A stretch of 64,000 bases of DNA from Candidatus Kerfeldbacteria bacterium RIFCSPLOWO2_02_FULL_42_19 (GTDB lineage: Bacteria; Patescibacteriota; Patescibacteriia; HO2-48-17), in NCBI GenBank assembly GCA_001818315.1, contig MHKF01000010.1:3853-67852 (forward strand), in the 5' to 3' direction. Positions 1-59,830 of this stretch are shown here, one piece after another. Every line of letters begins with the position of its first letter. Position 1 is the stretch's first letter. The position numbers and the translations under genes are program-made. Below the pieces are notes generated by a model. It was not told the DNA's origin and did not search any database. It was given only the letters and a program-made list of their open reading frames with translations.

Positions 1-1373
1 TCTACCTTGGAACCCAAAGGAAGTTCTTTTATTTCCGCAATAGAAGGTTGCGACTGTTCAGTATCATTCATTTGCGTAGGTGAAATTTTCTCCGAAACAT
101 CGATCAAAGAGGGTGTCTCACCAGAGAGAGCTTGATCTGCTCCCGGAATATCCTGCTGTACAATATCTTGAGGAAAAACATTGTCTTGCCCAGGTGTTGG
201 TTGTGTATTCCATTGCCACTGCCCAATAGAAGTGCGAGCCCAGGAGACCCCCTCTGTTACATCAGTTGGAAAAGTTATAATATCCACAACTTCACCCAAA
301 GGATTCGTTAGCGAAACAGCATCACCGGTATTATTCAAAGCAATCGAAACTTCCGGCTGTTTCACAACAAAATAACTACGTGCGGCGATCGTCGTATCTT
401 CGGGAAAAACATACGTCCGCGCTGTATCCCCTATCTGCCAACCAAAAAGACTTATGGAACGATCCTCTTGATTCCAAAGCTCTATCCATTCAAAAGGAAA
501 ATCAGTCCCAACAGGATTCGGAAAAATTTCATTCATGAATACACGAGCTTGCACATCAACCGGCTGAATTTTCGAATCATCCTCTGGCGCTGGCGTTTCA
601 TCTTCTGAATCATCATCTGTTGGCACTTCGTCAGAAGGTTCGGTTTCGTCCTTATCTTCTGGCGTCCCCTCATCCGTATCCTTATCATCATTCGGATTCG
701 GCACGACACTGTCGTTATTTTTCTCTTTTTCATCAGAATCGTCTTTGGAGGTATCGGTATCATTTTGATCATCATCTTGTGTCTCATCAAAAACATTCAC
801 TTGTCCAGGTGTGACGTGTGAAGTCCACTGCCATTCCCCTTCCGAATCCAAACTAAAACTTTCCCCCTCAACGACACTGCCGTTATAACGCATGCTGTCA
901 ACAACTTCCCCGTTGGGATCAACAAATGTCACTTGATCACCTCCGCTATTATTCAACACAATTCCTGATGTCGCACGATACAAGACAACATAGCCCCGAC
1001 TCGAAACTAACGATACATTTCCAGAAGGAATCACGAAAGTTTTTCCACTCGCATCAATAATTTTCCAATCTTTCAAATCAATCCCCTGACTTGAATAATT
1101 GTAGAGCTCTATAAACTCATTCGCAGTATCATCACCAATGGGATTTGGTAAAATTTCAGAAATCTGCAAAGAGTGATTATAAACAACAGGAATCGGATGA
1201 ATGCTCGGCTGTGATGGCGATGGCTCCGTCGGAGGATTTGGAGGTTGCTGAGGCGTAGTGGGTTGTGACTTCGGAACAGAAGGGGGCACTTCATCACAAG
1301 CTGAAGCAACACGCGAAGGAACAATAAGCAGGAAAACAAAGAGAAGGAGAAAACAAATACGTACATAAAACAT
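1..1373 (-). CDS. secreted lamin-tail-domain (LTD) repeat protein; 3' end runs off the window start
   Basis: ATG at 1373 is followed by a hydrophobic signal peptide (MFYVRICFLLLFVFLLIVPS) and the frame stays open to position 1. At least three LTD-type repeats are present (NEFIELYNYSSQGIDLKDWKIIDASGKTFVIPSG; FEWIELWNQEDRSISLFGWQIGD). The track ORF 1109..1366 starts at a neighbouring ATG in the wrong frame. Confidence 0.6.
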   Translation of the reverse strand, partial: MFYVRICFLLLFVFLLIVPSRVASACDEVPPSVPKSQPTTPQQPPNPPTEPSPSQPSIHPIPVVYNHSLQISEILPNPIGDDTANEFIELYNYSSQGIDLKDWKIIDASGKTFVIPSGNVSLVSSRGYVVLYRATSGIVLNNSGGDQVTFVDPNGEVVDSMRYNGSVVEGESFSLDSEGEWQWTSHVTPGQVNVFDETQDDDQNDTDTSKDDSDEKEKNNDSVVPNPNDDKDTDEGTPEDKDETEPSDEVPTDDDSEDETPAPEDDSKIQPVDVQARVFMNEIFPNPVGTDFPFEWIELWNQEDRSISLFGWQIGDTARTYVFPEDTTIAARSYFVVKQPEVSIALNNTGDAVSLTNPLGEVVDIITFPTDVTEGVSWARTSIGQWQWNTQPTPGQDNVFPQDIVQQDIPGADQALSGETPSLIDVSEKISPTQMNDTEQSQPSIAEIKELPLGSKV

Positions 1374-1491
1374 ACAATGAAAATAAAAATAAAAACGCCC
1401 TCTTTTCAGAGGACGCACATCTCTTACTTACAACGTATCATCCAAAATCACTCATGTCAACAGTCGTTTTATCCACAGACGGCGCGACGGC

Positions 1492-2142
1492 TCACGGTTG
1501 CATAAGCCCCTTAGGAGTAGCGACATGCGAACCGCCGCTGACCTCATCAGTGCCAACTTCAAGTTCATAACTCAGATCATAAAACTGCGCCGGGAGACTT
1601 CCAATAGGAGTATAAATATAATCACGTCCGCCGGGAGTAGAATTTTGAGGCAGTGTCTGTAAAAAACGCGGCACTAATCCATCCAGTATATCGGGGTACG
1701 ATCCATCCGCTTCAAAATGCGCCCGCAATGCAGCCTGAAGACTTTTAATGTCGACAACACGCTGCTCATCACGAGTACGCGCTTGTGGATCATTCGTCGT
1801 TGGTGCGGTATTCACATTCAATTTATCATTCACCTCACCGTCCTCGTTCGTGTTATCTTGCGGGACATTAGTTACAGGTGCGTCATTCACATTGAGCTCA
1901 GTCGCATTGACGTTTTGATTCGACGTCAATTCTGCGAGATCATCATAAGTAAGTTCAGGATATTGAGGGTCATCGTTATCCGGATTGCGATTCGAAATCT
2001 CACTATTACTCTCCTGCGCTGAAGCTGAAGGCGTGTTACTATTCGAAGCAGTATTTCCTGAAGATTGCTTGCTGCGATTCAGAACGCATCCCGCAGAAAA
2101 TAAAAGCGCGAAAAAAAACAAAGTGAATATAAAAAATTTCAT
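1492..2142 (-). CDS. lipoprotein with a C-terminal pilin-like globular domain
   Basis: Internal ATG at 2142 gives MKFFIFTLFFFALLFSAGC (lipobox-like). The longer track ORF 1492..2313 is an antisense read-through of the tRNA. Asn/Thr-rich linker, then a C-terminal segment RVVDIKSLQAALRAHFEADGSYPDILDG typical of type IV pilin/pseudopilin globular domains. Confidence 0.5.
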   Translation of the reverse strand: MKFFIFTLFFFALLFSAGCVLNRSKQSSGNTASNSNTPSASAQESNSEISNRNPDNDDPQYPELTYDDLAELTSNQNVNATELNVNDAPVTNVPQDNTNEDGEVNDKLNVNTAPTTNDPQARTRDEQRVVDIKSLQAALRAHFEADGSYPDILDGLVPRFLQTLPQNSTPGGRDYIYTPIGSLPAQFYDLSYELEVGTDEVSGGSHVATPKGLMQP

Positions 2143-2230
2143 ATATTTGCTGCAAAGCCATTTTCCCGTATTATACTCTACGTACCTCAAACATGCTACT
2201 ATAACGAAGATGCAAAAACCTGCGCTGCAC

Positions 2231-2315
2231 GCCGAGGTGGCGAAATTGGTAGACGCGCCAGGCTTAGGACCTGGTGGGGAAACCCATGGAGGTTCGAGTC
2301 CTCTCCTCGGCACCA
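2231..2315 (+). tRNA. tRNA-Leu (anticodon TAG), type II with long variable arm
   Basis: Acceptor stem gccgagg/cctcggc; anticodon arm ccagg-cuTAGga-cctgg; long variable arm; T arm ggagg-ttcgagt-cctct; discriminator A plus encoded CCA. Confidence 0.85.
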
Positions 2316-2453
2316 GTAAGGAAATAGCAAGGGGTTTTGGTTCGCCTCGCTTCGCTCGGCGACTAATTGGTATTCAATTTCGGGGGTAAAAACGAATTCA
2401 CGATTTCGCATTTTGGGGGAAGAAAATTTTTTAATCCTTAATCCAAATGCAAT

Positions 2454-2675
2454 ATGAAATACATACTTTACACTCGCAAATCTACCGAAGAAGATGACCG
2501 ACAGGTTTTAAGTATTGAAGCGCAACTCGTAGAGTTGCAAGAGTATGCCGCCAAAGAAAAACTTGAAATTGTCGCCTCGCTTTGCGAGGCCAAAACCGCC
2601 AAAGAGCCCGGAAAAACAATCGGCTCGAACCATGTTTTAGGAGAAAGAAGAAAAGAAAAATTTTTAATCATATGA
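2454..2675 (+). pseudogene. serine recombinase (resolvase/large serine recombinase) N-terminal fragment, truncated
   Basis: MKYILYTRKSTEEDDRQVLSIEAQ matches the catalytic-serine N-terminus (Y-x-R-x-S-T-x-x-Q ... SIEAQ) of serine recombinases. The similarity decays after about 55 aa and the ORF stops at 73 aa. It lies immediately 3' of a tRNA. Confidence 0.5.
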
Positions 2676-3448
2676 ACCAAAAAGGATTTGTAAATATCAT
2701 CATACTTATCGTTGTGATCGTTGCTATTGCCGGAATAGGCGGTTATGTCGCTTTGAATCGGCAATCTCCATCGCCGGGGCCCGCTCCAACACCTACGCCA
2801 ACACCAAATCCAATTCAGAACCCAAGTCCTACTCCAACCCCTACACCGACGCCAAAACCAAAGACGGAACCGACCACTTCTTTTACTCTTCCTCCGATCA
2901 CCAGTAAAGATTCAATATGTATTTTGCCTTATGGCAACGAAACAAATATTACCGACCCGAATCATCCTTTGGTAGTAGAGTCTAAACAAGTGGTGCTCGG
3001 TTTTGGTATAAGCGAGGACTACTTCAATAAACATTTTAAATTTCTGTGCGCGGTTGCCGACCAACCTTCTCATCGCCAAGTCAGGTGGCAGTATACGATT
3101 GGAGAGTTTACAACGATTATTTACGACGAGATCGGGTTTTCTGGTAGTACCAACATTCACGGTATCAACAATGATTTGTATGGGTTGACAGAAATTCAGA
3201 AGGTTATTTCTAAAACCGAAGCGGGACAGTTTATGCAATCGTGCATAGGAGATTTTAAAGAAGCTCGCGTAGGATTTGTATTTCCAAATGGATTTGATCG
3301 CAGAACGAGCCACGCTAAACCTTACTTGACAGCTAGTTCTGTTAAAGAAGAACGAGGGCTGGATATCAGTTGGGACGTAGGTAATGTTAATCTCCAAACC
3401 GGAGAATGTATTAAAGGTAGTGGTGGTGTAATTCATGCTCCTTTGTAA
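2672..3448 (+). CDS. membrane-anchored protein with Pro/Thr-rich linker and C-terminal globular domain, unknown function
   Basis: ATG at 2672 gives MNQKGFVNIIILIVVIVAIAGIGGYVAL (single TM), then a PTPTP-repeat linker. The track ORF from 2582 is an upstream extension overlapping the recombinase remnant. Confidence 0.5.
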   Translation: MNQKGFVNIIILIVVIVAIAGIGGYVALNRQSPSPGPAPTPTPTPNPIQNPSPTPTPTPTPKPKTEPTTSFTLPPITSKDSICILPYGNETNITDPNHPLVVESKQVVLGFGISEDYFNKHFKFLCAVADQPSHRQVRWQYTIGEFTTIIYDEIGFSGSTNIHGINNDLYGLTEIQKVISKTEAGQFMQSCIGDFKEARVGFVFPNGFDRRTSHAKPYLTASSVKEERGLDISWDVGNVNLQTGECIKGSGGVIHAPL

Positions 3449-3605
3449 TACTTTTTATTGCCGCCAAAGAAAAATTGGAAATTGTTAAATCTCGCGGCAA
3501 AGCCGCTCCGAATTCACGGGGGGCTCCTCGCCGCCGCAGGCGGCGAAATGCGTTCGAACTAATTCAAGAATACAGCACCAAAACTAACTTTGTCGGAATT
3601 GGCTG

Positions 3606-3839
3606 CTCCGCGCCCCGCCTTTGGCGGGACTGCGCCTCAACAAAATTTTCTTCTCCAATTTTTAGATTTCGCGCGCCCCCCAAAAAAAATTTAAATAAGG
3701 AAGAATAAAATTTTGTTTCGGCGTTCTACCCTATCGGGCAGACGGAGACGGTCTGGCGCTCGCGGGCAAAAAGTTTCCATCCCCCTTCAACCCCTTTCCA
3801 CTTTTTGCTCGCTCGCTTGATCTGGCGGAAAAAGTTTTT
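3606..3839. repeat. left copy of a ~234-bp inverted repeat pair (partner 6303..6535)
   Basis: Reverse complement of 6303..6535 aligns base for base with 3606..3839, with only a handful of mismatches or 1-nt indels. GC-rich, with a small hairpin ccgcc-ttt-ggcgg and three copies of a caaaaagt motif. Confidence 0.85.
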
Positions 3840-3848
3840 CGCAGACTC

Positions 3849-3876
3849 TTGACAACAATTTACAATCGGTTATTAT
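3849..3876 (+). promoter_or_regulatory. putative sigma70-type promoter for the rSAM maturase
   Basis: TTGACA (3849..3854), 16-nt spacer, TATTAT (3871..3876). Lies just inside the inverted-repeat boundary. SD aaaggaggg sits 6 nt before the ATG at 3960. Confidence 0.4.
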
Positions 3877-3959
3877 CATAGCGGATTAAGGTAAAATAAT
3901 TTTACCCTATATAGCACCTTGACATAGCCCAAAACCAACAAAAGAAAGGAGGGCCAGTT

Positions 3960-5315
3960 ATGACGGCTAAACTCAGTGCACCCGTAGATGTGCAAATCGA
4001 ATTGACGCAGGCTTGCAACTGGCGATGCCGCCACTGTTACAACTACTGGCGTTCGGCTGGGACAACGACCAAGTCTGGTCGACATCTTTCGTGCGACGAT
4101 CTTTTTCGCATTGTGCAGGAACTGACTACCAACCGAGTTCCGTCGATCACAATTACGGGCGGTGAGCCGTTTTCACGACGCGGAGAAGTTTTTACGTTAC
4201 TGGAAACAGCCAAGAAGGCGGGTATCCACGCGTCAATCAACACAAACCTCAGTCTTGTGAGAAAAGAAGACATCGAGAAGCTCGCTGATGAACACGGCGG
4301 CGTATCGATTCTCTTCTCGCTTTTGTCAGCAGACGCGGCAGAGCATGAACGTCTCGCTGGCGCCCCGAACGGCTCCTACGTCCGAGTAATCGAGACAGCG
4401 GCCTTGGCCATCCAGCACGGGATTCCGGTGAGTCTCAATATGGTTCTCATGCGAGAGAACCTCCACGCAATGGAGGTTACGGCACGCCTTGCTAAGAATC
4501 TCGGTGTGCGCACGTTCTGTGCGACAAAAGCGCTCCCTAATGCTCACGCACCTGACGGCGCATTTCTCCTGTCAGCAGAGCAGGTGCATTGGTCTCTCGC
4601 TGAGCTCATGCGGATTGAGAAACTACTCGAGATTCCCGTCGACATCTTGGGTTGTTACCCCAGATGTCTCCTTGTAGACACTCCTGCGTACCAACGTTTC
4701 TCACACCGCACCTGTGTGGCTGGCTATACAACGGTTACGATCGGTGCCGATGGGAACGTGAGACCATGTTCTCACATGGAAACAAGCTACGGGAACATCC
4801 TCCACAAACCGCTCGCCGATATCTGGCAGAAAATGGGTGGTTGGCGCGAGGGTGAGTTTATCCCCGAGGAGTGTCATGGTTGTCCAGTTGTGGCTGCCTG
4901 CAGAGGGGGCTGTCGCGTCAACACGCTCACGCCAGGTTTAAAGAACATGGATTGCTATGCTGACACGCGGCGTTTGGTCGGTTTACCACAGGAACGTTTG
5001 GCTTCACGCTTGCCCGAGGAGATAGGCAACATCCCGACCAAGGTTATAGTGTGTCCGCAAGTAAGGTTTCGAGACGAGCCATTCGGGGCGTTGGCTTACA
5101 GAATCGACCCCCTTGCCATCGTCCTGATAAACCACAGCGCTACGGCTTTCCTCAGAACTGTAGCGGAAAAGAGAGAGAAGTTTGACCTTTCCTCCTTCCT
5201 TGAACGATCTGGCGCAATGACCGAAAGTGAGCGCAGGAGCGTAGAGCGTCTGTACCAAAAGTTGATTCGGAAAGGTTTCCTAATGACACCAACAAATCAG
5301 CAAGAAAGGAGGTGA
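3960..5315 (+). CDS. radical SAM / SPASM-domain peptide maturase with C-terminal PqqD-like RRE domain
   Basis: CNWRCRHCY (CX3CX2C radical SAM cluster motif); GGEPF SAM-binding motif; C-terminal Cys-rich SPASM region (CHGCPVVAACRGGCRVN). The last ~90 aa (VRFRDEPFGALAYRIDPLAIVLINHSATAFL...ERLYQKLIRKGFL) resemble a PqqD/RiPP recognition element. Confidence 0.85.
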   Translation: MTAKLSAPVDVQIELTQACNWRCRHCYNYWRSAGTTTKSGRHLSCDDLFRIVQELTTNRVPSITITGGEPFSRRGEVFTLLETAKKAGIHASINTNLSLVRKEDIEKLADEHGGVSILFSLLSADAAEHERLAGAPNGSYVRVIETAALAIQHGIPVSLNMVLMRENLHAMEVTARLAKNLGVRTFCATKALPNAHAPDGAFLLSAEQVHWSLAELMRIEKLLEIPVDILGCYPRCLLVDTPAYQRFSHRTCVAGYTTVTIGADGNVRPCSHMETSYGNILHKPLADIWQKMGGWREGEFIPEECHGCPVVAACRGGCRVNTLTPGLKNMDCYADTRRLVGLPQERLASRLPEEIGNIPTKVIVCPQVRFRDEPFGALAYRIDPLAIVLINHSATAFLRTVAEKREKFDLSSFLERSGAMTESERRSVERLYQKLIRKGFLMTPTNQQERR

Positions 5316-5320
5316 TAGTG

Positions 5321-5473
5321 ATGGAAGCAGACATCCGTAACGACACAGTCGCGGAGAACGAACAGCCCGAAGTGTTCGCCGAAGTATCGCTGTTCGGCGC
5401 AAAGATGGCTGGCAGCGACGAAAGCGGCGACTGCAGCTGCTTCAGTTGCGACGGGAACCCGTGTAACAAGTGA
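5321..5473 (+). CDS. putative RiPP precursor peptide (50 aa, acidic leader, Cys-rich core); below the ORF-track size cut-off
   Basis: Strong SD aaaggagg 8 nt upstream of the ATG, and the start is only 6 nt after the maturase stop. MEADIRNDTVAENEQPEVFAEVSLFGAKMAGSDESGDCSCFSCDGNPCNK has a C-terminal 4-Cys cluster like SCIFF/ranthipeptide-type precursors. Confidence 0.6.
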   Translation: MEADIRNDTVAENEQPEVFAEVSLFGAKMAGSDESGDCSCFSCDGNPCNK

Positions 5474-5504
5474 GCCATTAGACGCGCGTTTCCCGCAACA
5501 TCAA

Positions 5505-5540
5505 GGGGGAAGTTAACCACACTCCCCCCTTTTTTATTTT
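5505..5540. terminator. intrinsic terminator hairpin between the convergent precursor and peptidase genes
   Basis: gggggaagt-taaccac-actcccccc stem-loop followed by tttttatttt. Confidence 0.55.
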
Positions 5541-6202
5541 ACAAACTGTTTTTTGAAGTCGGTTATGAACTGTTCGAATTTCTCGTCGAAGTATAATGGG
5601 ATGCTTTTAATAGAAATGTGCATTGAGTGACGGTAGCTTATCGCGGCAATAAATTTTTTCCATCCATACCGCCTTACAGAGAACATAACTAGCAACCCAG
5701 TAATATTATAACCATTATGTTCTGCGGCAACTCTCCAAGATACACGCTTGAAGGGCACGCCTTCTCGTGTAATCTTTTCCCAATCCGTAGTTGATATTGA
5801 GGGCTTAAAAATTTGGGCCGCAACATATACCGATACCCCCTCTTTTAACCAGTCCGGTAAATTGGGGTTTAATGTGTTGGTATAAAGGTGTGTTATTTCA
5901 TGCAGAAGTATTTGGCTCATTACCTTCCTCCCTGTTAATTTCTCGTTGGTACTAAGTACATAAATGTGAGAGGTGCTCTTTGGAGGCACGTAAGCAACAA
6001 GCCAGTCTGGCACTTTCTTTTTGTGAATCGCCTTTAAAAAGGATGCTCTATTTCGAAAGACGTGCACTACAACAAAAAAGGGAGAAACAGAAAACAATCT
6101 AGTTAACTTCTGGATATTCGAATGAGTATTTCTGATATAAAAATTCTTTTGCGGTATCACCGATTCAAATATAAATTTGATTTTTGTACCTCGTCTTCTC
6201 AT
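5534..6202 (-). CDS. putative zinc metallopeptidase (HExxH), candidate leader peptidase
   Basis: LLHEITHLY HExxH motif with a Glu about 20 residues downstream (DWLKEG). Encoded convergently inside the same inverted-repeat-bounded segment. Confidence 0.5.
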   Translation of the reverse strand: MRRRGTKIKFIFESVIPQKNFYIRNTHSNIQKLTRLFSVSPFFVVVHVFRNRASFLKAIHKKKVPDWLVAYVPPKSTSHIYVLSTNEKLTGRKVMSQILLHEITHLYTNTLNPNLPDWLKEGVSVYVAAQIFKPSISTTDWEKITREGVPFKRVSWRVAAEHNGYNITGLLVMFSVRRYGWKKFIAAISYRHSMHISIKSIPLYFDEKFEQFITDFKKQFVK

Positions 6203-6302
6203 AGTTCTTAATTTTACTGGCGATGTATAACATTATTTATACCAAAGATACCAAAGATACCAAAGATTATCATTATTGTAAACAGCATGGTCAAGAGTCG
6301 TC

Positions 6303-6535
6303 AAAAACTTTTTCCGCCAGATCAAGCGAGCGAGCAAAAAGTGGAAAGGGGTTGAAGGGGGAGGGAAACTTTTTGCCCGCGAGCGCCAGACCGTCTCCGT
6401 CTGCCCGATAGGGTAGAATGCCGAAACAAAATTTTATTCTTCCTTATTTAAATTTTTTTTGGGGGGGCGCGAAATCCGGAAATTGGAGAAGAAAATTTGT
6501 TGAGGCGCAGTCCCGCCAAAGGCGGGGCGCGGAGG
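6303..6535. repeat. right copy of the ~234-bp inverted repeat pair (partner 3606..3839)
   Basis: See the left copy; near-identical in inverted orientation. Confidence 0.85.
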
Positions 6536-6696
6536 CGTTGCGTTATTGGCGTTTTTCAAAAATTTTTATAAAATGAGTTTAAGAAATGTCGCTGATTTTC
6601 CCGTTCAAAAAAGGTTCGCGCAAAGTGTATAATTACAGCACCAAATAAAAAATGCTACAATATCCATAGCTTATTCTTACTCCTTAATATATCTTT

Positions 6697-7074
6697 ATGC
6701 GATTCTTTAAATGGGCTCTTTTGTATAGCCTTCTCGTATGGATGATACCCTTTGTCATTGCTTTTCTTATTTTTCCTTTACGCAATTCTGATCGCGATTT
6801 TTTTGAATCCATCATGCCTGTGGCGGTCGTTCTCGCAACGGTTATATTTTCTGGCCTGTATTTTAAGAAGGTACATCATGAGTACTTAAAAGAAGGATTG
6901 CTCCTCGGCGTCATTTTTCTCCTTGTTAATCTCGTGTTCGATCTCGCTATGTTCAGTCAAGGACCATGGGCTATGCCTCTCGGAAAGTATATCAAAGATA
7001 TCGGATTTACCTATCTGATGATCCCGATCATCACGGTTGGCTTTGGCGCTGCCCTGCAAAAGAAGCAAAAATAA
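6697..7074 (+). CDS. small integral membrane protein (about 4 TM), unknown function
   Basis: Hydrophobic segments throughout. Possible upstream -10 (tataat) about 80 nt before the start. Confidence 0.45.
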   Translation: MRFFKWALLYSLLVWMIPFVIAFLIFPLRNSDRDFFESIMPVAVVLATVIFSGLYFKKVHHEYLKEGLLLGVIFLLVNLVFDLAMFSQGPWAMPLGKYIKDIGFTYLMIPIITVGFGAALQKKQK

Positions 7075-7233
7075 ATCTTCGTGTACAAGTGTTTGATTTT
7101 CCACCCACTTCTATTATAATGCTCATGCAGTAACAGAAAGTATCTGTTCTGTGGTGTGTCAGTAGCACGCCAATTTTATGGTTTGCGCCAAGAGTCTAAA
7201 AAACTCTAGCGCCAGCTTAGGAGACTGAAAAGC

Positions 7234-8190
7234 ATGCTCTTTACAAAATCTCGTGCAGAACTCAAGGCAACGTTCTTGGGTTACGAAATGGGCAAATGGC
7301 TGTGGGGAGGTCATTTCGATCCCAGGGTCCCTGTGTACATTCCTCTTGCTTCTTTTCTTCAGAGGGAGCGCGATGCCAAAGAACCCTGCCACATATGGCG
7401 GGGAGAGCTTGTAGTACGCCTCGCAAATGCGCTGACAGAAAAGGTTGTAGAGCCACCTGCTTCCACTCCTCTTGATCTTCTGAGGCAACTCTCTCCGCTG
7501 GGAGTGCCGCTGAAGGATCTTCACTCTGATAGTCACGGAGATTGGACGCGCAATCTCATCGACTGTTTGGAGACTTTCTGCCGTCCTTCGGTAGAGATGA
7601 GGATGGTGGAATTTGAACCGGGCACGATACTCGTTCTCCTCAAAGAGAGGGAAAACGAACGCGTCTGGGTTGTGAAAAATGGATCGGGACAAACCCTGGT
7701 CCACAGCCACGCAGATTTTTCATGGTACGCAGCACTACAAGTGCTGGTGTACCTGTGGGATCATCATGGTCCAGGATGGGAGCAAGCACGCAGCATGCTG
7801 TGTGATGTACTCGAGAAAGTGGCAGATAACTACCGCGCGCAGCAGACTGAGGCGTTTGATTCCGCCGTGGCGGTGTCCGTCGATGGTACACGGATTGTGT
7901 GTGCTGATGAAGTGCTTATCGTAAGTCTCGGACAATGCTGGCATTTTTCCCATTCCATCTTCTCTAATGCCAAAATCGTGCTTGATCCGAGCTATGAGAA
8001 GACTGAAGGACAGCAGTTCACTCCGCAATTGATCGAAACGTTAGCCGGTGATTGCAAACTGAATCCTCAGTACCTCAAACGTCTGTATAAGGAAGGTGGC
8101 CACCGAGAACGGCGCATCTTCATCACCGGTCTGCAACATTGCCCACCGGATGCACTGAAGGCGGCGGGGATCTCTGAGAGCGCAAGATAA
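7234..8190 (+). CDS. hypothetical protein (GC-richer than surroundings)
   Basis: Longest ORF in the region; GC visibly higher than the flanking sequence; no recognisable motifs. The antisense ORF 7159..7710 is rejected. Confidence 0.4.
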   Translation: MLFTKSRAELKATFLGYEMGKWLWGGHFDPRVPVYIPLASFLQRERDAKEPCHIWRGELVVRLANALTEKVVEPPASTPLDLLRQLSPLGVPLKDLHSDSHGDWTRNLIDCLETFCRPSVEMRMVEFEPGTILVLLKERENERVWVVKNGSGQTLVHSHADFSWYAALQVLVYLWDHHGPGWEQARSMLCDVLEKVADNYRAQQTEAFDSAVAVSVDGTRIVCADEVLIVSLGQCWHFSHSIFSNAKIVLDPSYEKTEGQQFTPQLIETLAGDCKLNPQYLKRLYKEGGHRERRIFITGLQHCPPDALKAAGISESAR

Positions 8191-8302
8191 AACTGTCGGC
8201 AGTTGACCGAGGATCTTTCCAACAACAAAGGGCGCGGTGCTATACACACTATACACGGCGCCCTTACAATTTCTATCCATTAAAATGTAGGAACTCATCT
8301 TT

Positions 8303-9229
8303 TCATCTCACTTCAGAAAGAAACCACGAAAAAGTTCGATGGATACCTTCCTCTAAACTCACGCGAGGCTTCCATCCAAGATCGCTTTGAATACGAGTAC
8401 AATCCAATGCACTACGCAATTGATCTCCTAAGATACCGGCGGTGTGTTTTGGTGTGATCGAAACTCCCGCGACACGAGAAAGATACTGAATAATTTCAAG
8501 TAACGATGTCTCTTTTCCTGTGCCGACATTATAACAACCGGTATATTGACTATCATACGCCAACAGGAACGCATCAATAGCATCACTCACAAACATATAA
8601 TCTCGAGTCTGATGACCGGCACCATAAATCACAGGTTGTTCATCCTTGATAATCTTCTGACTAAAAATAGCAACCACACCCGATTCCCCGCCGGGATCCT
8701 GACGCGGGCCATAGACGTTCGCGAATCGCAATGAAAGAGTCTGTAAACCATGTGTCTGCCTAAAAAAATCCAGATAGTGCTCCGCCGTCAATTTTGAGAG
8801 AGCATACGGCGAAATTGGTTGTGGCGGATACGATTCTGGTGTCGGAATAATCTTTGCATCGCCATACATCACTCCGCCAGTAGACGCAAAGATACATTTT
8901 CGTACTCCGTATTGTACGCACATCTGCAAGATGTTCAGACTCCCCAAAATGTTTATATCCGCATCGATGTGAGGGTTGTCAACTGAAAATCGAACATTCT
9001 TTTGACCCGCAAGATGGAACACTGTATCAATATCATGTGCTTGAAAAATCTCCTCGATATCGTTCCAACGAATATCTTTCTGAAAAAGTAATGCTTGTTT
9101 GTGAATATGCGTCCGCTTCCCAGTCGAAAGATCATCGAGAATGAGTACTCGATAATGACGCGCAATACACGCATCAACTAAATAAGACCCTATAAAACCA
9201 GCGCCGCCAGTAATAAGTACCGTTTGCAT
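8303..9229 (-). CDS. NAD-dependent sugar epimerase/dehydratase (extended SDR family)
   Basis: N-terminal TGGAGFIGS Rossmann motif and catalytic PYALSK (YxxxK); about 308 aa. Confidence 0.85.
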   Translation of the reverse strand: MQTVLITGGAGFIGSYLVDACIARHYRVLILDDLSTGKRTHIHKQALLFQKDIRWNDIEEIFQAHDIDTVFHLAGQKNVRFSVDNPHIDADINILGSLNILQMCVQYGVRKCIFASTGGVMYGDAKIIPTPESYPPQPISPYALSKLTAEHYLDFFRQTHGLQTLSLRFANVYGPRQDPGGESGVVAIFSQKIIKDEQPVIYGAGHQTRDYMFVSDAIDAFLLAYDSQYTGCYNVGTGKETSLLEIIQYLSRVAGVSITPKHTAGILGDQLRSALDCTRIQSDLGWKPRVSLEEGIHRTFSWFLSEVR

Positions 9230-9256
9230 AATAAGGAATAGAGATAGTACTTGTGC

Positions 9257-9964
9257 TCAAACCGCAGGCTCAATCACGGTAAAAGTTTGAAGCAGCGCAT
9301 CAATCAATTTTTGCTGGAGCGCATACGTCTCGGGTGAAGAAGCGCGTGCGGTGATCGCATACACATCTTTTCCACTATCGACATACGTTGTGGTGCTATA
9401 TCCATACTCATATTCCGGATCACGTGGATCGTTCTCAACTTGCTGTACTGCTGGTTTACCTTGAATCACCAACGGCTGCACATTGGAAACCTCACTGAAT
9501 TTTGATTTTTCAGCAATAATGTCCTCAAAAGTTTGATCATTCTTGGGAGTAAGTTCAATTACGAAAGTAAGGAGATCACTCGTGATATTACTAAACTCAG
9601 ATCGCGGAAGACGGCTAAGATACTCAATATCCGTCGATCGCTCCTCGAGATCAGTATAAAAATCAGATCCTGTCCAAGCGTCCCATCCTTGAGGATACTG
9701 CAGAGTGTAATCCATCTGTTTACTCTTGAACGTCTGCCAATTTTCTGAATTCTGTTCCTGAGCAACGGTCTGAGTAAGCTTTGTGAAATCCGCAGTATTA
9801 GTCGCTGTTTGATTTGTTTGAATTTGATTCGTAGCAGGAATCTCATTCGTATTCGACAAATTTACAACATTTGCATTCTTACGAATACATCCAGTGAAAA
9901 AAAGACTGAGGCCGAAAAATGCAATGGAAAAAACCCATTGTCGTGCATGTTTATTTTGATACAT
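9257..9964 (-). CDS. secreted/lipoprotein, unknown function
   Basis: Signal peptide with LFFTGC lipobox-like sequence; Asn/Thr-rich linker. Confidence 0.5.
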   Translation of the reverse strand: MYQNKHARQWVFSIAFFGLSLFFTGCIRKNANVVNLSNTNEIPATNQIQTNQTATNTADFTKLTQTVAQEQNSENWQTFKSKQMDYTLQYPQGWDAWTGSDFYTDLEERSTDIEYLSRLPRSEFSNITSDLLTFVIELTPKNDQTFEDIIAEKSKFSEVSNVQPLVIQGKPAVQQVENDPRDPEYEYGYSTTTYVDSGKDVYAITARASSPETYALQQKLIDALLQTFTVIEPAV

Positions 9965-10109
9965 AAAAAGAAATAAATGTTAATTGTGAAGCATGAATGA
10001 ATTGTAACAAAAAGCTGAAAGAAAACCAACAGAATACGCGGAATTCAAACACAGAACTTTATGAAGCAAAAGTAGATCGCACCAAATCAAGAAGTAACAA
10101 TTTCCGAAA

Positions 10110-12497
10110 ATGTTCGATTGCGTTATACTGTACGTAGAAAAACAAAAAAATCTTCACCATCAAACTATGCACGCGAGTACGAAAAAAGGGATGATCATTA
10201 TCGGAGCAGCATTTTTAGGCATCATCGCTGCTGTTTTTATTTTCTTTCTTTCTACAGACGCTGTTACTGGCACCGTACGAGACCTCAGCGGCCAAACGAT
10301 CGCAGGCGCAAAAATTAAAGGTGGTTTACGAGAAGCAACAACCGATGCACAGGGACGCTTCGAAACTTGGGTGACCGAAGGTACAGAAGAACTTACGGCA
10401 GAATACAACAGTGAGATAACAACTATCGCCTTAGAAAGAGATCCGGACAAACAAAAAATCGCGAAAGAAACTACGGCGCCAAAGATTACGGATGTTTTTG
10501 AAAGTGAGGACGAGGCATTCCAAGGATTAAATCCGGAAGAAGTCGACCTCATCCGTGAAGAAATCAACAATGGATATATTCCAGAACCGCAAAATGCAAC
10601 TCCACAGGATTCAGAAGCAATGAATATTACAATCCCCTCACTTCCCGACGACATCAAACTTCCACCACCCGTAGATCCGAACGCCTTTATCATCAATGAA
10701 AATGGACTGGAAGTTGTGCCGGGAGAAATCCTCGTAGGTTGGAAACAAGGCACCACAGAAGAGGAACGCAAGGAGCAAGTGCAAAACGTCGGTGCAGCAA
10801 TGCGTTTTGATGATCCACAGGGACTGACGAGCATCCTCTATATTGAGGATCAGCAGCAAGTGAAAACGGTAGTGCAGAAACTCGAAAAATCTGAACTTGT
10901 CCTAGGCGCTATGGAAAATTTTAAACTCGAAACTGACGCTGCGCCGAACGACCCCGATTGGAAAGACAAAAATAAAAACTGGTGGCTGCGAAAGCTCAAT
11001 GCAGAACCTCTCTGGGCAGGAACAACAGGTCGGAGCAATGTTATTGTCGCGGTCATTGATGTCGGATTTCAATTAAGTCATCCCGATCTCGCAAGCGCAT
11101 TCACAAAAGCAAATCTCAACTATACCACAGGCCTAATAACAGACACACCGAGGCACGGCACGCACGTTTCTGGTATCATTGCGGCGCGAAAAGACAACGG
11201 GCAAGGGCTTGCAGGCATCGCGCCAAGAGTGCGCGTACTACCAATACGATTGTATGATTTCGCACGACTCCCGGCAGTCTATACAACACTTGCCCAATAC
11301 CCACAAATTCGCATCGCGACAATGTCTATGGGTTGGAACTGGAGGAAAAAAAATAAGAATCGTGTTACTAACGGGAAAGCCGTACTCACAAACGCGCAGA
11401 TGCAAGCATACACCGATACATATGATCGAATCATCCGAAAATCGTTCCTGCAATATTATCGCGCCGGAGGCGTGATGTGTAAATCAGCTGGAAACGATTT
11501 TGGCCTTGATGCTCGTCTCAATCTCCTGAACTACGCAGAAGTAATTACGGTCGGTGCGAGTGAATCCACTGGGACACTAACGAATTTTTCAAACATCGGA
11601 CCGAAAGTCGACATCATCGCTCCCGGAAGAAATATTTGGGCACCGCTCCCGCCCAGCACATACGGCTATCTCTCTGGAACATCTATGGCAACACCAACCG
11701 TATGCGGAACGGTTGCAAGTATACGCTCAGTGCGTCCTAATTTCGGCGCACTCCTCATTAAACGTATCTTAACGTATTCTGGCTCTCACGAATCAGTGAA
11801 ATCCGCATCTGGATATCCGCATCTTGATTCGTGGCGTGCAGTTTTGCGGGCAACGAATCATTTTGGCGCGAAAGGAGATCTTATTGATGAAGGGTTTACA
11901 CCGCTCAAAAATGCGCAAATCACAACGCGTCCAACGCAGTGGAACGTGCTCAGTAACAATGAAGGTGAATTTGTACTCCCCTTTCTTAAACGACAAACAT
12001 ATACGCTCAACATCCAAAAAGACAAGTTGAAAAGCAAACATACGCTTACATCCCCGCCTGTGAAAGGCGATGAAGTCGTGGATCTTTTGCTCATGGTAGA
12101 AGGTGAAGACGAAGAAACAAATGAAAACACAAACACCGACGCGAATGAAAATACGAGTAGCAGTGAAAATGTAAATACGGATGCAGGAAACACGAATGGC
12201 AGCGATAGCCAAGGGAGCGACGGCGCTGAATCAACTGAAGAAAATCAGACGTTACCTAACGGCATTGTCGTATCTCCTGAAGGCTGCGCCGTGTCTGGAT
12301 TTACTCTTCCACCAGCAGAAGGAGACTGCGCGCCAGGATTTTACTTTTCACGAGAAACCATTGCGTGCGAACAAATAACATGTCCGGAAGGCGTTGGACG
12401 AACCTACACATTAGAATGCAAGTGTCCGGAAGGGACTTCAGCTGTTCATGCCTGCGGATCAGGATATGTTGTCGCGTGCGTTCCATCAAAACCATAA
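10110..12497 (+). CDS. subtilisin-like serine protease (peptidase S8) with N-terminal anchor, carboxypeptidase-regulatory-like domain and Cys-rich C-terminus
   Basis: Catalytic triad contexts VIAVIDVGF (Asp), HGTHVSGIIAA (His), GTSMATP (Ser). The true start may be the internal Met MHASTKKGMIIIGAAFLGII at about 10167. Confidence 0.85.
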   Translation: MFDCVILYVEKQKNLHHQTMHASTKKGMIIIGAAFLGIIAAVFIFFLSTDAVTGTVRDLSGQTIAGAKIKGGLREATTDAQGRFETWVTEGTEELTAEYNSEITTIALERDPDKQKIAKETTAPKITDVFESEDEAFQGLNPEEVDLIREEINNGYIPEPQNATPQDSEAMNITIPSLPDDIKLPPPVDPNAFIINENGLEVVPGEILVGWKQGTTEEERKEQVQNVGAAMRFDDPQGLTSILYIEDQQQVKTVVQKLEKSELVLGAMENFKLETDAAPNDPDWKDKNKNWWLRKLNAEPLWAGTTGRSNVIVAVIDVGFQLSHPDLASAFTKANLNYTTGLITDTPRHGTHVSGIIAARKDNGQGLAGIAPRVRVLPIRLYDFARLPAVYTTLAQYPQIRIATMSMGWNWRKKNKNRVTNGKAVLTNAQMQAYTDTYDRIIRKSFLQYYRAGGVMCKSAGNDFGLDARLNLLNYAEVITVGASESTGTLTNFSNIGPKVDIIAPGRNIWAPLPPSTYGYLSGTSMATPTVCGTVASIRSVRPNFGALLIKRILTYSGSHESVKSASGYPHLDSWRAVLRATNHFGAKGDLIDEGFTPLKNAQITTRPTQWNVLSNNEGEFVLPFLKRQTYTLNIQKDKLKSKHTLTSPPVKGDEVVDLLLMVEGEDEETNENTNTDANENTSSSENVNTDAGNTNGSDSQGSDGAESTEENQTLPNGIVVSPEGCAVSGFTLPPAEGDCAPGFYFSRETIACEQITCPEGVGRTYTLECKCPEGTSAVHACGSGYVVACVPSKP

Positions 12498-22175: not shown

Positions 22176-22253
22176 GAGCAGAGAGGAAGATTATATTTTC
22201 GAAGCACTTACAGGGCACAGTGTGCTTCGAAAATATAATCTTCCTCTCTGCTC
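22176..22253. repeat. long perfect palindrome (32-bp arms, 14-nt centre), member of a recurring hairpin family
   Basis: gagcagagaggaagattatattttcgaagcac / gtgcttcgaaaatataatcttcctctctgctc; the centre contains gcacagtgtgc. Confidence 0.8.
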
Positions 22254-26806: not shown

Positions 26807-27286
26807 ATGCAGGGTCCGATGGTTGCGATGGGTTCTGGGGAACAGGAGGGCAGGATGCGTAACGCCCACACCTACCGTAAGTGGCGCGCGTGGAACGTCG
26901 CCTGCGTGCTGTTGCGGGAAGAAGAAAACCGCCTGATCACGAGAGTAGATACCCAACCAAAAAACGATTCTGATGAACTTGCCGAGAGAGAACAACGCCG
27001 GCAGCAAGACATCACCGAAGAACAGCGTTCTTTGGAAGCCCTCGCTCAGCAGAGGGAAGCGTTGTTCAAAACGCTGAGCGAGGAACAAAAAATTGTTTTT
27101 TCAGAGAGGATGAAAGGCACAAAAAACCCGGAGATCATCAAAAAAGTCCAAGTTCAATTACGCAACGTTCGATTGCGCAATGTTTCTAAGGTCGTCTGCG
27201 ACATCAAGAAAAAGATCAAGAAGCTCGGATACATCGAGCTACTCTCGGATCTCGATGACCGCAGGCGATACAAGAAAACGCTCTGA
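26807..27286 (+). CDS. hypothetical protein with possible C-terminal HTH
   Basis: ORF ends inside a long hairpin; weak resemblance to sigma-70 region 4-like HTH (LSEEQKIVFSERMKGTKNPEII). Confidence 0.3.
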   Translation: MQGPMVAMGSGEQEGRMRNAHTYRKWRAWNVACVLLREEENRLITRVDTQPKNDSDELAEREQRRQQDITEEQRSLEALAQQREALFKTLSEEQKIVFSERMKGTKNPEIIKKVQVQLRNVRLRNVSKVVCDIKKKIKKLGYIELLSDLDDRRRYKKTL

Positions 27287-27337
27287 AACCCAAAGCACGG
27301 ACAGGTTTTTCCTCTCCGTGCTTTGGGTTTCAGAGCG
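27279..27337. terminator. 23-bp perfect hairpin followed by a T-rich tract
   Basis: cgctctgaaacccaaagcacgga / tccgtgctttgggtttcagagcg with a 13-nt loop, then ttttccgcttttg. Confidence 0.5.
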
Positions 27338-27683
27338 TTTTCCGCTTTTGAGTAGGAGATAGGTTTTCCACTCCAACGGCGCAACCACCGACCTCAAGTC
27401 TTCCTCTGTACACTCGATCCAGGCTTCGAGGAAGGCTTCGATCTCTTCCACCCGCTCCGCCAGCCAGCGAGTATCCATTCCAGCAATGATCGCTTCTTCA
27501 CGCTGATTGCCCCCGGCAGAAGGACAGCGCCAGAGAGGAATGATGGGACGTGCGGCGATGCCTTTGGGGTTGTGAGGTATTTGGGGTATTTTCTTACCCT
27601 CCTGCCCCAACCTCTCGAAACCTTCGACTGAATAAGATGAGATACATCGTGTGCACTTGAGAAAGTAAGCAATCTGGTAGGAT

Positions 27684-40326: not shown

Positions 40327-40412
40327 AGAAGCGCGGTAATGGATCTTATACCTTTCGAAGCACTCACACTGCACAGTGTGCTGAGAAAGGTATAAGATCC
40401 ATTACCGCGCTT
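40327..40412. repeat. long palindrome (29-bp perfect arms, 28-nt structured centre), same family as 22176..22253
   Basis: gaagcgcggtaatggatcttatacctttc / gaaaggtataagatccattaccgcgcttc; the centre is ...ttcgaagcactcacactgcacagtgtgctga. Confidence 0.8.
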
Positions 40413-40451
40413 CTTACATTATGGAAAAATTATCACGCAAAAAGTCTATTG

Positions 40452-57122: not shown

Positions 57123-57197
57123 AGAGCCCTCTCTGTATATATCTTCTCAAGTGACTTTTCCATGTCATCTCGAGAAGATATATACAGAGAGGGCTCT
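57123..57197. repeat. 26-bp perfect inverted repeat with 23-nt spacer between divergent gene starts
   Basis: agagccctctctgtatatatcttctc / gagaagatatatacagagagggctct. Confidence 0.8.
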
Positions 57198-59718: not shown

Positions 59719-59736
59719 ATTCTTTCATCCGAAAAA

Positions 59737-59812
59737 AGCAGGGAAGTACACTGTAATTTCGAAACACACTGTGCAGTGTTAGTACTTCGAAATTACAGTG
59801 TACTTCCCTGCT
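59737..59812. terminator. 27-bp perfect palindrome with A-tract before and T-tract after; likely bidirectional terminator; same family as 22176 and 40327
   Basis: agcagggaagtacactgtaatttcgaa / ttcgaaattacagtgtacttccctgct; the centre contains cacactgtgcagtgt; flanked by aaaaaa and ggttttgt; sits between convergent genes. Confidence 0.7.
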
Positions 59813-59830
59813 GGTTTTGTATATCCGAAA

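Follow-up and report, generated by a model that had tools for sequence, protein, structure and literature searches.

A radical SAM/SPASM maturase, a Cys-rich peptide and a metallopeptidase between inverted repeats with putative promoters in a Candidatus Kerfeldbacteria genome

Introduction

What is a 2.4-kb segment of three genes that lies between two long inverted repeats, and how do the genes and the repeats belong together? The question is raised by positions 3606-6535 of a stretch of 64,000 nucleotides (nt) from contig MHKF01000010.1 (assembly GCA_001818315.1, positions 3,853 to 67,852, forward strand), which is called the window below. The host is Candidatus Kerfeldbacteria bacterium RIFCSPLOWO2_02_FULL_42_19, a groundwater bacterium of the candidate phyla radiation (CPR, or Patescibacteria), in agreement with the CPR-like host supposed in a first-pass annotation of the same DNA. 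CPR bacteria have very small genomes, and few biosynthetic gene clusters are found in them in surveys (e.g. PMC11613949, PMC12153355). Nevertheless, the compact three-gene radical S-adenosylmethionine (rSAM) peptide module described here is widespread in CPR.

We read the segment as a horizontally spread rSAM module for a ribosomally synthesised and post-translationally modified peptide (RiPP), with twin promoter-bearing inverted repeats that recombine and sometimes invert the module, and we put the probability of this reading at roughly 0.6. That the three genes, encoding a maturase, a precursor peptide and a peptidase, are a real and conserved rSAM RiPP module is supported by their domains and by their recurrence in related loci.

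The maturase and its C-terminal domain

The first gene of the cassette (3960-5315, + strand) encodes a radical SAM/SPASM peptide maturase of 451 amino acids (aa), identified by Pfam, alignment, AlphaFold and Foldseek. It matches the Pfam models Radical_SAM (4.2e-26, above the cut-off) and SPASM (1e-8; 35.6 bits, cut-off 21.5), so the enzyme type named in the first-pass annotation stands. The CxxxCxxC motif (C19/C23/C26) is invariant in an alignment of 62 homologues, as are the seven auxiliary-cluster cysteines C236, C252, C270, C305, C308, C314 and C318, which include a CX2CX5CX3C motif. The protein thus has the motif, the Pfam match and the partial TIM-barrel fold of the radical SAM superfamily, and the seven-Cys motif for two auxiliary Fe-S clusters that is typical of SPASM enzymes. 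The AlphaFold model has a predicted local distance difference test score (pLDDT) of 91, and its best Foldseek matches are the peptide-modifying rSAM enzymes SuiB, SkfB, anSME, PqqE, TigE and CteB. No curated NCBIfam maturase family (AlbA, SkfB, StsB, ScmE/F, GeoRSP, PqqE, MftC, etc.) is reached, the best scores being 54-102 bits at cut-offs of 180-850. For example, the enzyme obtains 72 bits for AlbA (cut-off 850), 70 for SkfB (300) and 79 for StsB (625), and its best sub-threshold matches include PqqE (1e-27) and the mycofactocin maturase (3e-20).

A further domain is formed by residues ~352-451 (5013-5312, + strand). Modelled separately (pLDDT 90), it consists of three beta-strands followed by three helices, and its nearest Foldseek neighbours in PDB are almost all RiPP recognition elements (RREs): PbtF 8t19 (E 8e-3), TigE, MccB, TfuB1, TbiB1, PqqD 5sxy and CteB, with probabilities of 0.9-1.0 and E-values from 8e-3 to 0.2. 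Profile search against PDB returned weak matches to the SuiB RRE and to winged-helix proteins, and the Pfam PqqD model did not match the C-terminal 108 aa alone even at E up to 10. The fused PqqD-like element suggested earlier is therefore unseen by sequence models but emerges from the fold; judged by its predicted structure, the domain is an RRE (PqqD-like), with a predicted role in leader recognition.

The precursor peptide

The gene of the 50-aa precursor peptide (5321-5473, + strand) starts with an ATG 5 nt after the enzyme stop codon, which confirms the small ORF (open reading frame) of the first-pass annotation, and is preceded by the strong Shine-Dalgarno sequence (AGGAGG) noted there. 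The peptide has a variable N-terminus, a conserved part EVFAEVSLFGA.MAGSDESGD and the Cys-rich core CSCFSCDGNPCNK. Its 16 database homologues are all annotated as 'hypothetical'. No NCBIfam or Pfam model, the SCIFF model included, matches the window peptide or seven representatives of related clades.

The peptidase and the terminator

On the opposite strand, the third gene (5534-6202, - strand) encodes a gluzincin-type zinc metallopeptidase of 222 aa with an HExxH...E motif, which is presumed to be the leader peptidase. The motif reads HEITH (H101-E102-x-x-H105) with a further glutamate at E121, and these residues are invariant in 16 homologues. The convergent HExxH metallopeptidase of the first-pass annotation is borne out at the family level: all 16 homologues match Peptidase_MA_2 (best E 8.7e-12), although the window protein alone, with 20.4 bits, stays below the cut-off of 32.4. 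In a profile search against PDB the family aligns with the active-site region of M1 aminopeptidases, and with its HExxH motif and a downstream Glu as third zinc ligand it has the features of clan MA(E), the gluzincins.

Between the two convergent units lies an intrinsic terminator of the enzyme/precursor operon (5503-5541, + strand), made of a hairpin (5503-5531) and UUUUUUAUUUU. Its fold energy is -17.5 kcal/mol on the + strand (z -2.7) and -28.5 kcal/mol on the - strand (z -3.8). The hairpin is directly 3' of the peptidase gene as well, and a U-run follows it on the + strand only. What had been called a shared terminator is thus canonical for the enzyme/peptide operon but only a hairpin for the peptidase transcript.

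Conservation and spread of the three genes

We surveyed 103 related loci, and 510 relatives of the enzyme were confirmed in one metagenome scan. In dozens of the 103 loci a Cys-rich peptide is encoded directly 3' of the enzyme, so the small ORF is conserved beside homologous maturases, a point on which the first-pass annotation had made its reading depend. The complete trio recurs over many CPR loci, down to ~33% enzyme identity, and the peptides form three clades. In clade 1, which extends to ~49% enzyme identity, the precursor is of the form ...EVFAEVSLFGAEMAGSDESGDCSCFSCDGNPCVK and the peptidase gene is convergent; leader and core are almost invariant over this wide range of enzyme identity. 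In clade 2 the precursor is ...CQCVNCQSCDNKCNK or ...CDKGCQCVACDNTGCNK, and the peptidase homologues, 26-55% identical to one another, are encoded co-directionally. The HExxH peptidase thus accompanies two of the three clades, convergent in one and co-directional in the other. Clade 3 has precursors of the form GFExILD...CYDCDYNCEECDN, and no peptidase homologue was found near the enzyme in the surveyed loci. That the trio is conserved while its gene order varies strongly indicates that the three proteins function together, and the module of maturase, precursor and protease proposed at first is upheld.

Clade 3 is a large clade of related enzymes, unnamed in curated libraries, whose genes are followed by those of Asp/Cys-rich peptides with the leader GFE[ST][IL]LD and the core ...CYDCDYNCEECDN; its members are L081, L087, L089, L094, L098-L100, L104, L108, L111, L114, L116, L119, L122, L126-L128, L130 and L136.

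Signs of decay exist in some copies of all three genes. The peptide of one sister lineage has lost its last core Cys to Gly, the enzyme is split into ORFs of 266 and 227 aa in L144 (the metagenome-assembled genome, or MAG, PFVL01000008, 'Moranbacteria'), and the peptidase is called as just 128 aa in several contigs (L004, L008, L147-L149). Database copies of the cassette genes are annotated as 'hypothetical' or as plain radical SAM proteins. No curated family names the module and our literature search found no description of the family or the arrangement, in keeping with the earlier remark that this is not a described system.

Five other genomes (L009-L013, enzymes 68-86% identical) have in common with the window only positions 3849-6187, a span between the -35 box of the putative enzyme promoter and the peptidase start, and all their flanks differ. 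The GC content is 0.54 for the enzyme, 0.58 for the peptide gene and 0.38 for the peptidase, at a window average of 0.44. The first-pass statement that the segment is GC-richer than its host thus holds for enzyme and peptide gene but not for the peptidase. This split (enzyme and peptide high, peptidase low, compared with the host flanks) is found in all six hosts examined, namely the window and L009-L013; it hints that the two halves of the cassette have different origins, and a module that keeps its own compositional signature is expected under horizontal spread. Since the cassette alone is common to the six genomes, has its own GC signature and is close to tRNA genes, the module looks horizontally acquired, as had been supposed from the first.

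The inverted repeats

The cassette is bounded by two arms in inverted orientation, at 3606-3853 (+) and 6290-6534 (-). They are 248 nt long with 96% identity (BLAST E 1e-110), slightly longer than the ~234 bp of near-identical repeat first reported, and if gaps are allowed the similarity extends to 3606-3866 and 6275-6534 at 94%. Self-comparison showed this pair to be the sole long repeat of the window, and test 36-mers and 48-mers from the arms occur exactly 2 times each (0 expected). More than 20 contigs, obtained from more than 10 metagenome samples with several assemblers and including two NCBI MAGs, span both repeats and the cassette without a break, and some of them are 94-100 kb long. 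Fixed diagnostic sites distinguish the left arm from the right arm, so the arms are not collapsed copies of each other. Together, the many independent contigs and these differences exclude an assembly artefact for the repeats, a danger to which the first-pass annotation had pointed.

The left arm consists of an outer part (3606-3735), with a GC hairpin and an imperfect hairpin of ~90 nt (RNA fold z-score -4.0), and an inner part upstream of the putative enzyme promoter. The right arm has its core at 6290-6385 and its own copy of a conserved 38-nt block at 6304-6341. A microRNA-like Rfam match on the arm hairpin was judged spurious; the only other Rfam match in positions 1-12000 was the tRNA.

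Putative promoters and concerted evolution of the arms

The candidate promoter of the enzyme/precursor operon (3849-3876, + strand) is TTGACA-N16-TATTAT, with 11/12 matches to the consensus. It is also kept in L009, L010 and L012, and nucleotide homology with relatives that have no repeats starts at 3849. For the peptidase, one or two promoters are predicted at 6266-6304 (- strand), namely TTGACC (6294), a spacer of 17 nt and GATAAT, and an overlapping TTGACG/TACAAT alternative, with 10/12 matches each. The inner edge of each arm is the -35 box of a predicted inward-facing promoter, that of the peptidase being inside the right arm. Judging from these consensus matches, the arms would be primarily the upstream regions of two promoters.

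Arms are present only in three sister lineages (enzyme identity 92-95%): the window, the P0001 type (95% enzyme identity; L064/L147, L078 and L144-L150) and the P0002 type (92%; L151). Around the relatives L009-L031 no repeat of at least 30 nt was found, and in self-BLAST of the 103 related loci repeats appeared only in the L064/L078 lineage; relatives at enzyme identity of 86% or below have no arms, though their genomic contexts differ. A core of ~96 nt, at 3758-3853 (+) in the left arm (GCTCGCGGGCAAAAA...GACTCTTGAC), is the only part common to both arms in all three repeat-bearing lineages. It contains the 38-nt block (3802-3839, TTTTTGCTCGCTCGCTTGATCTGGCGGAAAAAGTTTTT), which is identical in 6/6 aligned arms of the window and the P0001 lineage and has one substitution in L151, the same one in both arms, unlike the cassettes, which differ by 6-8% between these lineages. 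The segment between GCAAAAA and TTTTTGC varies among lineages and is the same in both arms of each genome. Such lineage-specific yet arm-matched sequence is a signature of concerted evolution of the two arms, with recombination or gene conversion keeping them alike.

Within the 38-nt block, ~10-20 nt upstream of the -35 box, lies the palindrome AAAAAGTTTTT. It resembles a promoter UP element, is placed where one would lie and may act as one. The outer 150 nt of the window arms are lineage-specific. In L146 their homologue exists once, beside the peptidase and not the enzyme, directly at the 3' end of a tRNA-Arg gene. Three tandem copies of the 9-nt unit TACCAAAGA are read from the sequence of the peptidase 5' leader (6240-6266), and two copies exist in the sister lineages; the copy number could vary and might affect expression.

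The enzyme 5' leader (3884-3925) contains a small conserved stem-loop (GGTAAAAT..TTTTACC), located at the same position in L009, L010, L012, L064 and L070 and followed by a conserved 17-mer, ATAGCACCTTGACATAG. Inspection by eye shows the stem, with one compensatory change (T:A to C:G), in no more than the six closest sequences. Stem-loop and 17-mer could form a cis-regulatory element; the consensus structure over 11 sequences contains no pairs, since the distant sequences do not align.

Both orientations of the module

The first-pass annotation had considered an invertible segment and advised a search for the opposite orientation, which we found in L041, from the population of the window itself, and in L146 and L149 of a sister lineage; the idea is thereby substantially strengthened. 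In L041 (JGI 3300025308, 1.9 kb) a recombinant arm connects the right flank of the window with the 5' end of the enzyme gene. The unique part of this contig agrees with the window at 100% identity, and its arm is of the right type outside and of the left type at the inner edge, with the switch falling within the longest exact run common to both arms (60 nt).

Flank B of the P0001 lineage adjoins the peptidase end of the cassette in L144, L145, L147 and L148; in L146 and L149 it adjoins the enzyme end, the inverted state. The cassettes of L145 and L146 are 100% identical. Several samples and no fewer than two assemblers contributed these six contigs. Their arms share only 67-122 nt at 87-92%, so chimeric assembly is unlikely there. 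Each promoter would travel with its gene, and flipping should thus barely change expression and is probably near neutral.

Genomic setting

A tRNA-Leu gene (anticodon TAG; 2231-2315, + strand; ARAGORN and Rfam) lies 1.3 kb from the left arm, and its 3' end GGCACCA is the left edge of a rearrangement-prone stretch. It is followed by a truncated serine recombinase (2454-2675, + strand), an N-terminal resolvase fragment of 73 aa (Pfam Resolvase 1.6e-5, profile positions 2-45 of 145) that is the same in all strain contigs. Both neighbours had been pointed out in the first-pass annotation and are confirmed, the recombinase as a dead fragment. Strain variants break exactly at the tRNA 3' end and continue with either another tRNA-Leu (TAA) or a HAD hydrolase gene. 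Genes for tRNAs are found beside the cassette in the window, L146, L145 and L151, and the three repeat-bearing lineages have different genomic contexts that are all near tRNA genes.

The 12-nt sequence TACAGCACCAAA occurs in only two copies in the 64 kb, in direct orientation, bracketing the repeat-cassette-repeat unit. The left copy (3571-3582, + strand) is 23 nt outside the left arm, and the right copy (6634-6645, + strand) is inside a 48-nt promoter-like element (6598-6645), which in the P0001 lineage is likewise next to the cassette, its side varying with the orientation. This sequence resembles a tRNA 3' end, and the pair is possibly an att-like remnant. The stretch from the tRNA to the cassette is a mosaic and gives the impression of a site of frequent integration whose recombinase has decayed.

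Several further observations were made in this neighbourhood. In L038 (372-463, compared with window 2231-2315) a tRNA-Leu with anticodon TAA, not TAG, is directly upstream of the same recombinase remnant and cassette, and the two sequences are alike again from the common 3' end ...CCTCGGCACCAG; this swap suggests recombination at tRNA 3' ends. In L003, a strain variant of the window population, an inverted repeat of ~90 nt (136-225 / 978-1071), homologous to window 3459-3583, brackets the HAD hydrolase gene, which is thus a second gene in this population bracketed by long inverted repeats. Its 5' region is an inverted copy of the 5' region of the recombinase gene (window 2410-2440). A 27-nt direct repeat, 93% identical, is located at 2546-2572, within the truncated recombinase gene, and at 3459-3485, after an ORF of 258 aa; it brackets this ORF (2672-3448) as though insertion into the recombinase gene, or recombination with it, had brought the ORF there. 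Just past the right flank of the cassette, an ORF of 318 aa (7234-8190) has a raised GC content (0.51-0.53) and no Pfam or NCBIfam match. Elsewhere in the window there are five long near-perfect hairpins with arms of 29-37 nt (22176-22253, 27274-27342, 40327-40414, 57123-57197 and 59727-59822), two of which have the motif TTCGAAGCAC near the loop; the five may act as terminators or belong to one family of palindromic elements.

Proposed working of the module

The working that we infer from these observations is as follows. The RRE at the C-terminus of the rSAM/SPASM enzyme would bind the 50-aa precursor through its conserved leader (EVFAEVSLF...), and the enzyme would cross-link the Cys-rich core by SAM-derived radical chemistry with two auxiliary Fe-S clusters. 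In sactipeptides a Cys sulfur is bound to the alpha-carbon of an acceptor residue, and in ranthipeptides to its beta- or gamma-carbon. By analogy with these, the most likely product would carry Cys-to-carbon thioether bridges of sacti or ranthi type. The convergent HExxH...E zinc peptidase would then cut off the leader. The module would spread horizontally among CPR bacteria and land near tRNA genes. Its 248-nt arms would be twin copies of a promoter-upstream region, giving both convergent units the same upstream control sequence. These repeats would have arisen in one clade of three sister lineages, where recombination or gene conversion would keep the two arms alike and occasionally flip the 2.4-kb segment.

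A bolder version, quite unlikely in our view, would make the ~96-nt core with its 38-nt block the site of a trans-acting recombinase that flips the module and moves it between tRNA-proximal sites of CPR genomes, and would make the product a new class of cross-linked Cys-rich peptide with a housekeeping-type role in reduced, symbiotic bacteria. If true, this would be a recombinase-less 'flip-and-hop' biosynthetic cassette.

Weighing the alternatives

With respect to the repeats, the view that they and the inverted contigs are assembly artefacts might appeal to the contigs that terminate within the arms (L005, L008, L044, L050, L150 and L151) and to the short length of L041, but it is hardly credible given the read-through in independent samples and in contigs of up to 100 kb, the diagnostic differences between the arms, and sister-lineage inverted states that come from two independent assemblies with so little sequence common to their arms. 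A programmed site-specific switch (phase variation), in which an invertase acting on the 38-nt block turns the module or a flanking gene on or off, would agree with both orientations in two lineages, with a block more strictly conserved than the rest of the cassette and with the serine recombinase fragment nearby. We consider it very unlikely, because both promoters are inside the flipped segment or move with it and inversion uncouples no gene from its promoter; moreover, the recombinase is the 73-aa fragment in every strain contig and is absent from the sister-lineage contigs recovered, ordinary homologous recombination would find sufficient sequence in arms of 100-250 nt, and the inverted form is rare in the window population. 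The first-pass annotation had also taken the repeats to suggest a non-autonomous mobile element. In that case the arms would be terminal inverted repeats with the ~96-nt core as the true terminus, and a recombinase or transposase encoded elsewhere would move the unit between tRNA-proximal sites. A core that recurs at both ends of the cassette although the contexts differ (window, L144-L150, L151), flanks that differ outside the core, the nearly invariant 38-nt block, the 12-nt direct repeat around the window unit (with a similar 10/12 pair in L147) and the recombinase remnant 1 kb away all speak for it. On the other hand, apart from the inverted repeats the unit lacks the features of an insertion sequence (IS) or a miniature inverted-repeat transposable element (MITE): reading the sequence, we found no target-site duplication at the arm ends, the cassette has no transposase, and no further arm copy was found in the 64-kb window or, outside the sister lineages, in the 103 related loci. 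No empty site (flanks without the cassette) was found, and the 38-nt block has no match in viral contigs. A 28-mer of the arm has no match in JGI metagenome contigs either, a collection that evidently does not include the source samples. In addition, relatives without repeats (enzyme identity of 86% or below) are also located in different contexts, which shows that spread does not depend on the repeats; the arm cores fall on putative promoter elements that the genes would require in any case; and differing contexts may simply reflect different species. Orthologues of the flanking genes of the sister lineages were sought in the window and none was found, so the identity of the cassette is not comparable with that of core genes. 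The arms are no generic transposon ends, and we regard a mobile element as unlikely, though not far-fetched.

With respect to the product, it may be something other than a thioether peptide, e.g. a peptide-derived redox cofactor or a metal-binding peptide comparable to pyrroloquinoline quinone (PQQ) or mycofactocin. The set of components (rSAM/SPASM, RRE, small peptide and peptidase) is the same as in those pathways, PqqE and the mycofactocin maturase are among the best sub-threshold matches of the enzyme, and the near-invariant core of clade 1 fits a housekeeping molecule better than a fast-evolving bacteriocin. Moreover, there is no exporter or immunity gene, and very small CPR genomes retain the module. 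Against this, there is no tailoring gene like PqqB/C or MftD/F, the core has neither the Glu/Tyr pair nor the C-terminal Val-Tyr used by the PQQ and mycofactocin pathways, and a Cys-rich core beside an rSAM/SPASM-RRE enzyme, with SkfB and CteB as fold neighbours, is the classic sacti/ranthipeptide pattern. A non-thioether product is thus a minority view that we hold to be improbable but worth considering.

The preferred reading, a horizontally spread RiPP module whose arms recombine and sometimes invert it, has its own difficulties. In the window population ~35 other contigs are in the reference orientation and L041 alone is inverted, and L041 may be a chimeric assembly across the 60-nt common run. 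The two states of the P0001 lineage also differ in the far flank (A in one, C in the other), which is more than a simple two-state flip. Promoter and UP-element function are predicted from consensus matches, and the outer ~150 nt of the window arms have no evident promoter role. The scores for curated maturases are far below their cut-offs, and a thioether is presumed as the commonest precedent; the cassette includes no exporter or immunity gene; and the sister-lineage peptide (L064/L078/L147) ends in ...CDGNPGVK, in which the final core Cys is replaced by Gly.

Comparison with known systems

The near-invariant core of clade 1 suggests that the peptide is important to CPR biology, and it is a small and easily synthesised target for heterologous expression. 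The locus also illustrates clearly how, in nature, an entire biosynthetic module can lie between inverted repeats with putative promoters, with arms that evolve in concert and a module that is found flipped, and its anatomy bears on how small modules rearrange and spread in genomes with few mobile elements.

Compared with sacti- and ranthipeptide systems (AlbA/subtilosin, SkfB, CteB/SCIFF and PapB/freyrasin), the window module is alike in its rSAM enzyme, which has both a complete SPASM domain and an RRE, and in its short precursor of leader and Cys-rich core encoded beside the enzyme; the solved folds closest to the maturase include SkfB and CteB. It differs in that its RRE is C-terminal, whereas theirs is N-terminal, in that maturase and precursor match none of their curated models, and in that the partner is a small gluzincin instead of a C39 transporter or a peptidase of S8/M16 type. 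Its host is a CPR bacterium, and its product class is predicted from its genes. With PQQ (PqqA/D/E/F) and mycofactocin (MftA/B/C/E) biosynthesis it has in common the rSAM/SPASM enzyme, a PqqD-fold element, a small peptide and a peptidase, and PqqE is both a top sub-threshold match and a fold neighbour of the maturase. However, the RRE of the window is fused to the enzyme, further tailoring genes are absent, and the core is Cys-rich without the residues modified in those pathways.

The repeats can be compared with two other kinds of system. Like invertons (Hin/Gin-type switches), the unit has inverted-repeat bounds, both orientations in natural populations and a serine recombinase fragment nearby, but its arms are 100-250 nt long, compared with roughly 10-30 nt in known switches, and a whole 2.4-kb module with two putative promoters is flipped without uncoupling promoter and gene, next to a recombinase that is a dead fragment. 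Like MITEs and mobile insertion cassettes, it has passenger genes between terminal inverted repeats, no internal transposase and varied contexts in sister lineages, whereas it is single-copy and without target-site duplication, and its arms greatly exceed IS-type ends in length and coincide in position with the putative promoters of the cassette itself. What sets this rSAM/SPASM RiPP system apart is that it combines a C-terminal RRE and a gluzincin partner, both of which extend the known layouts of rSAM RiPP systems, with inverted repeats that would bear its promoters.

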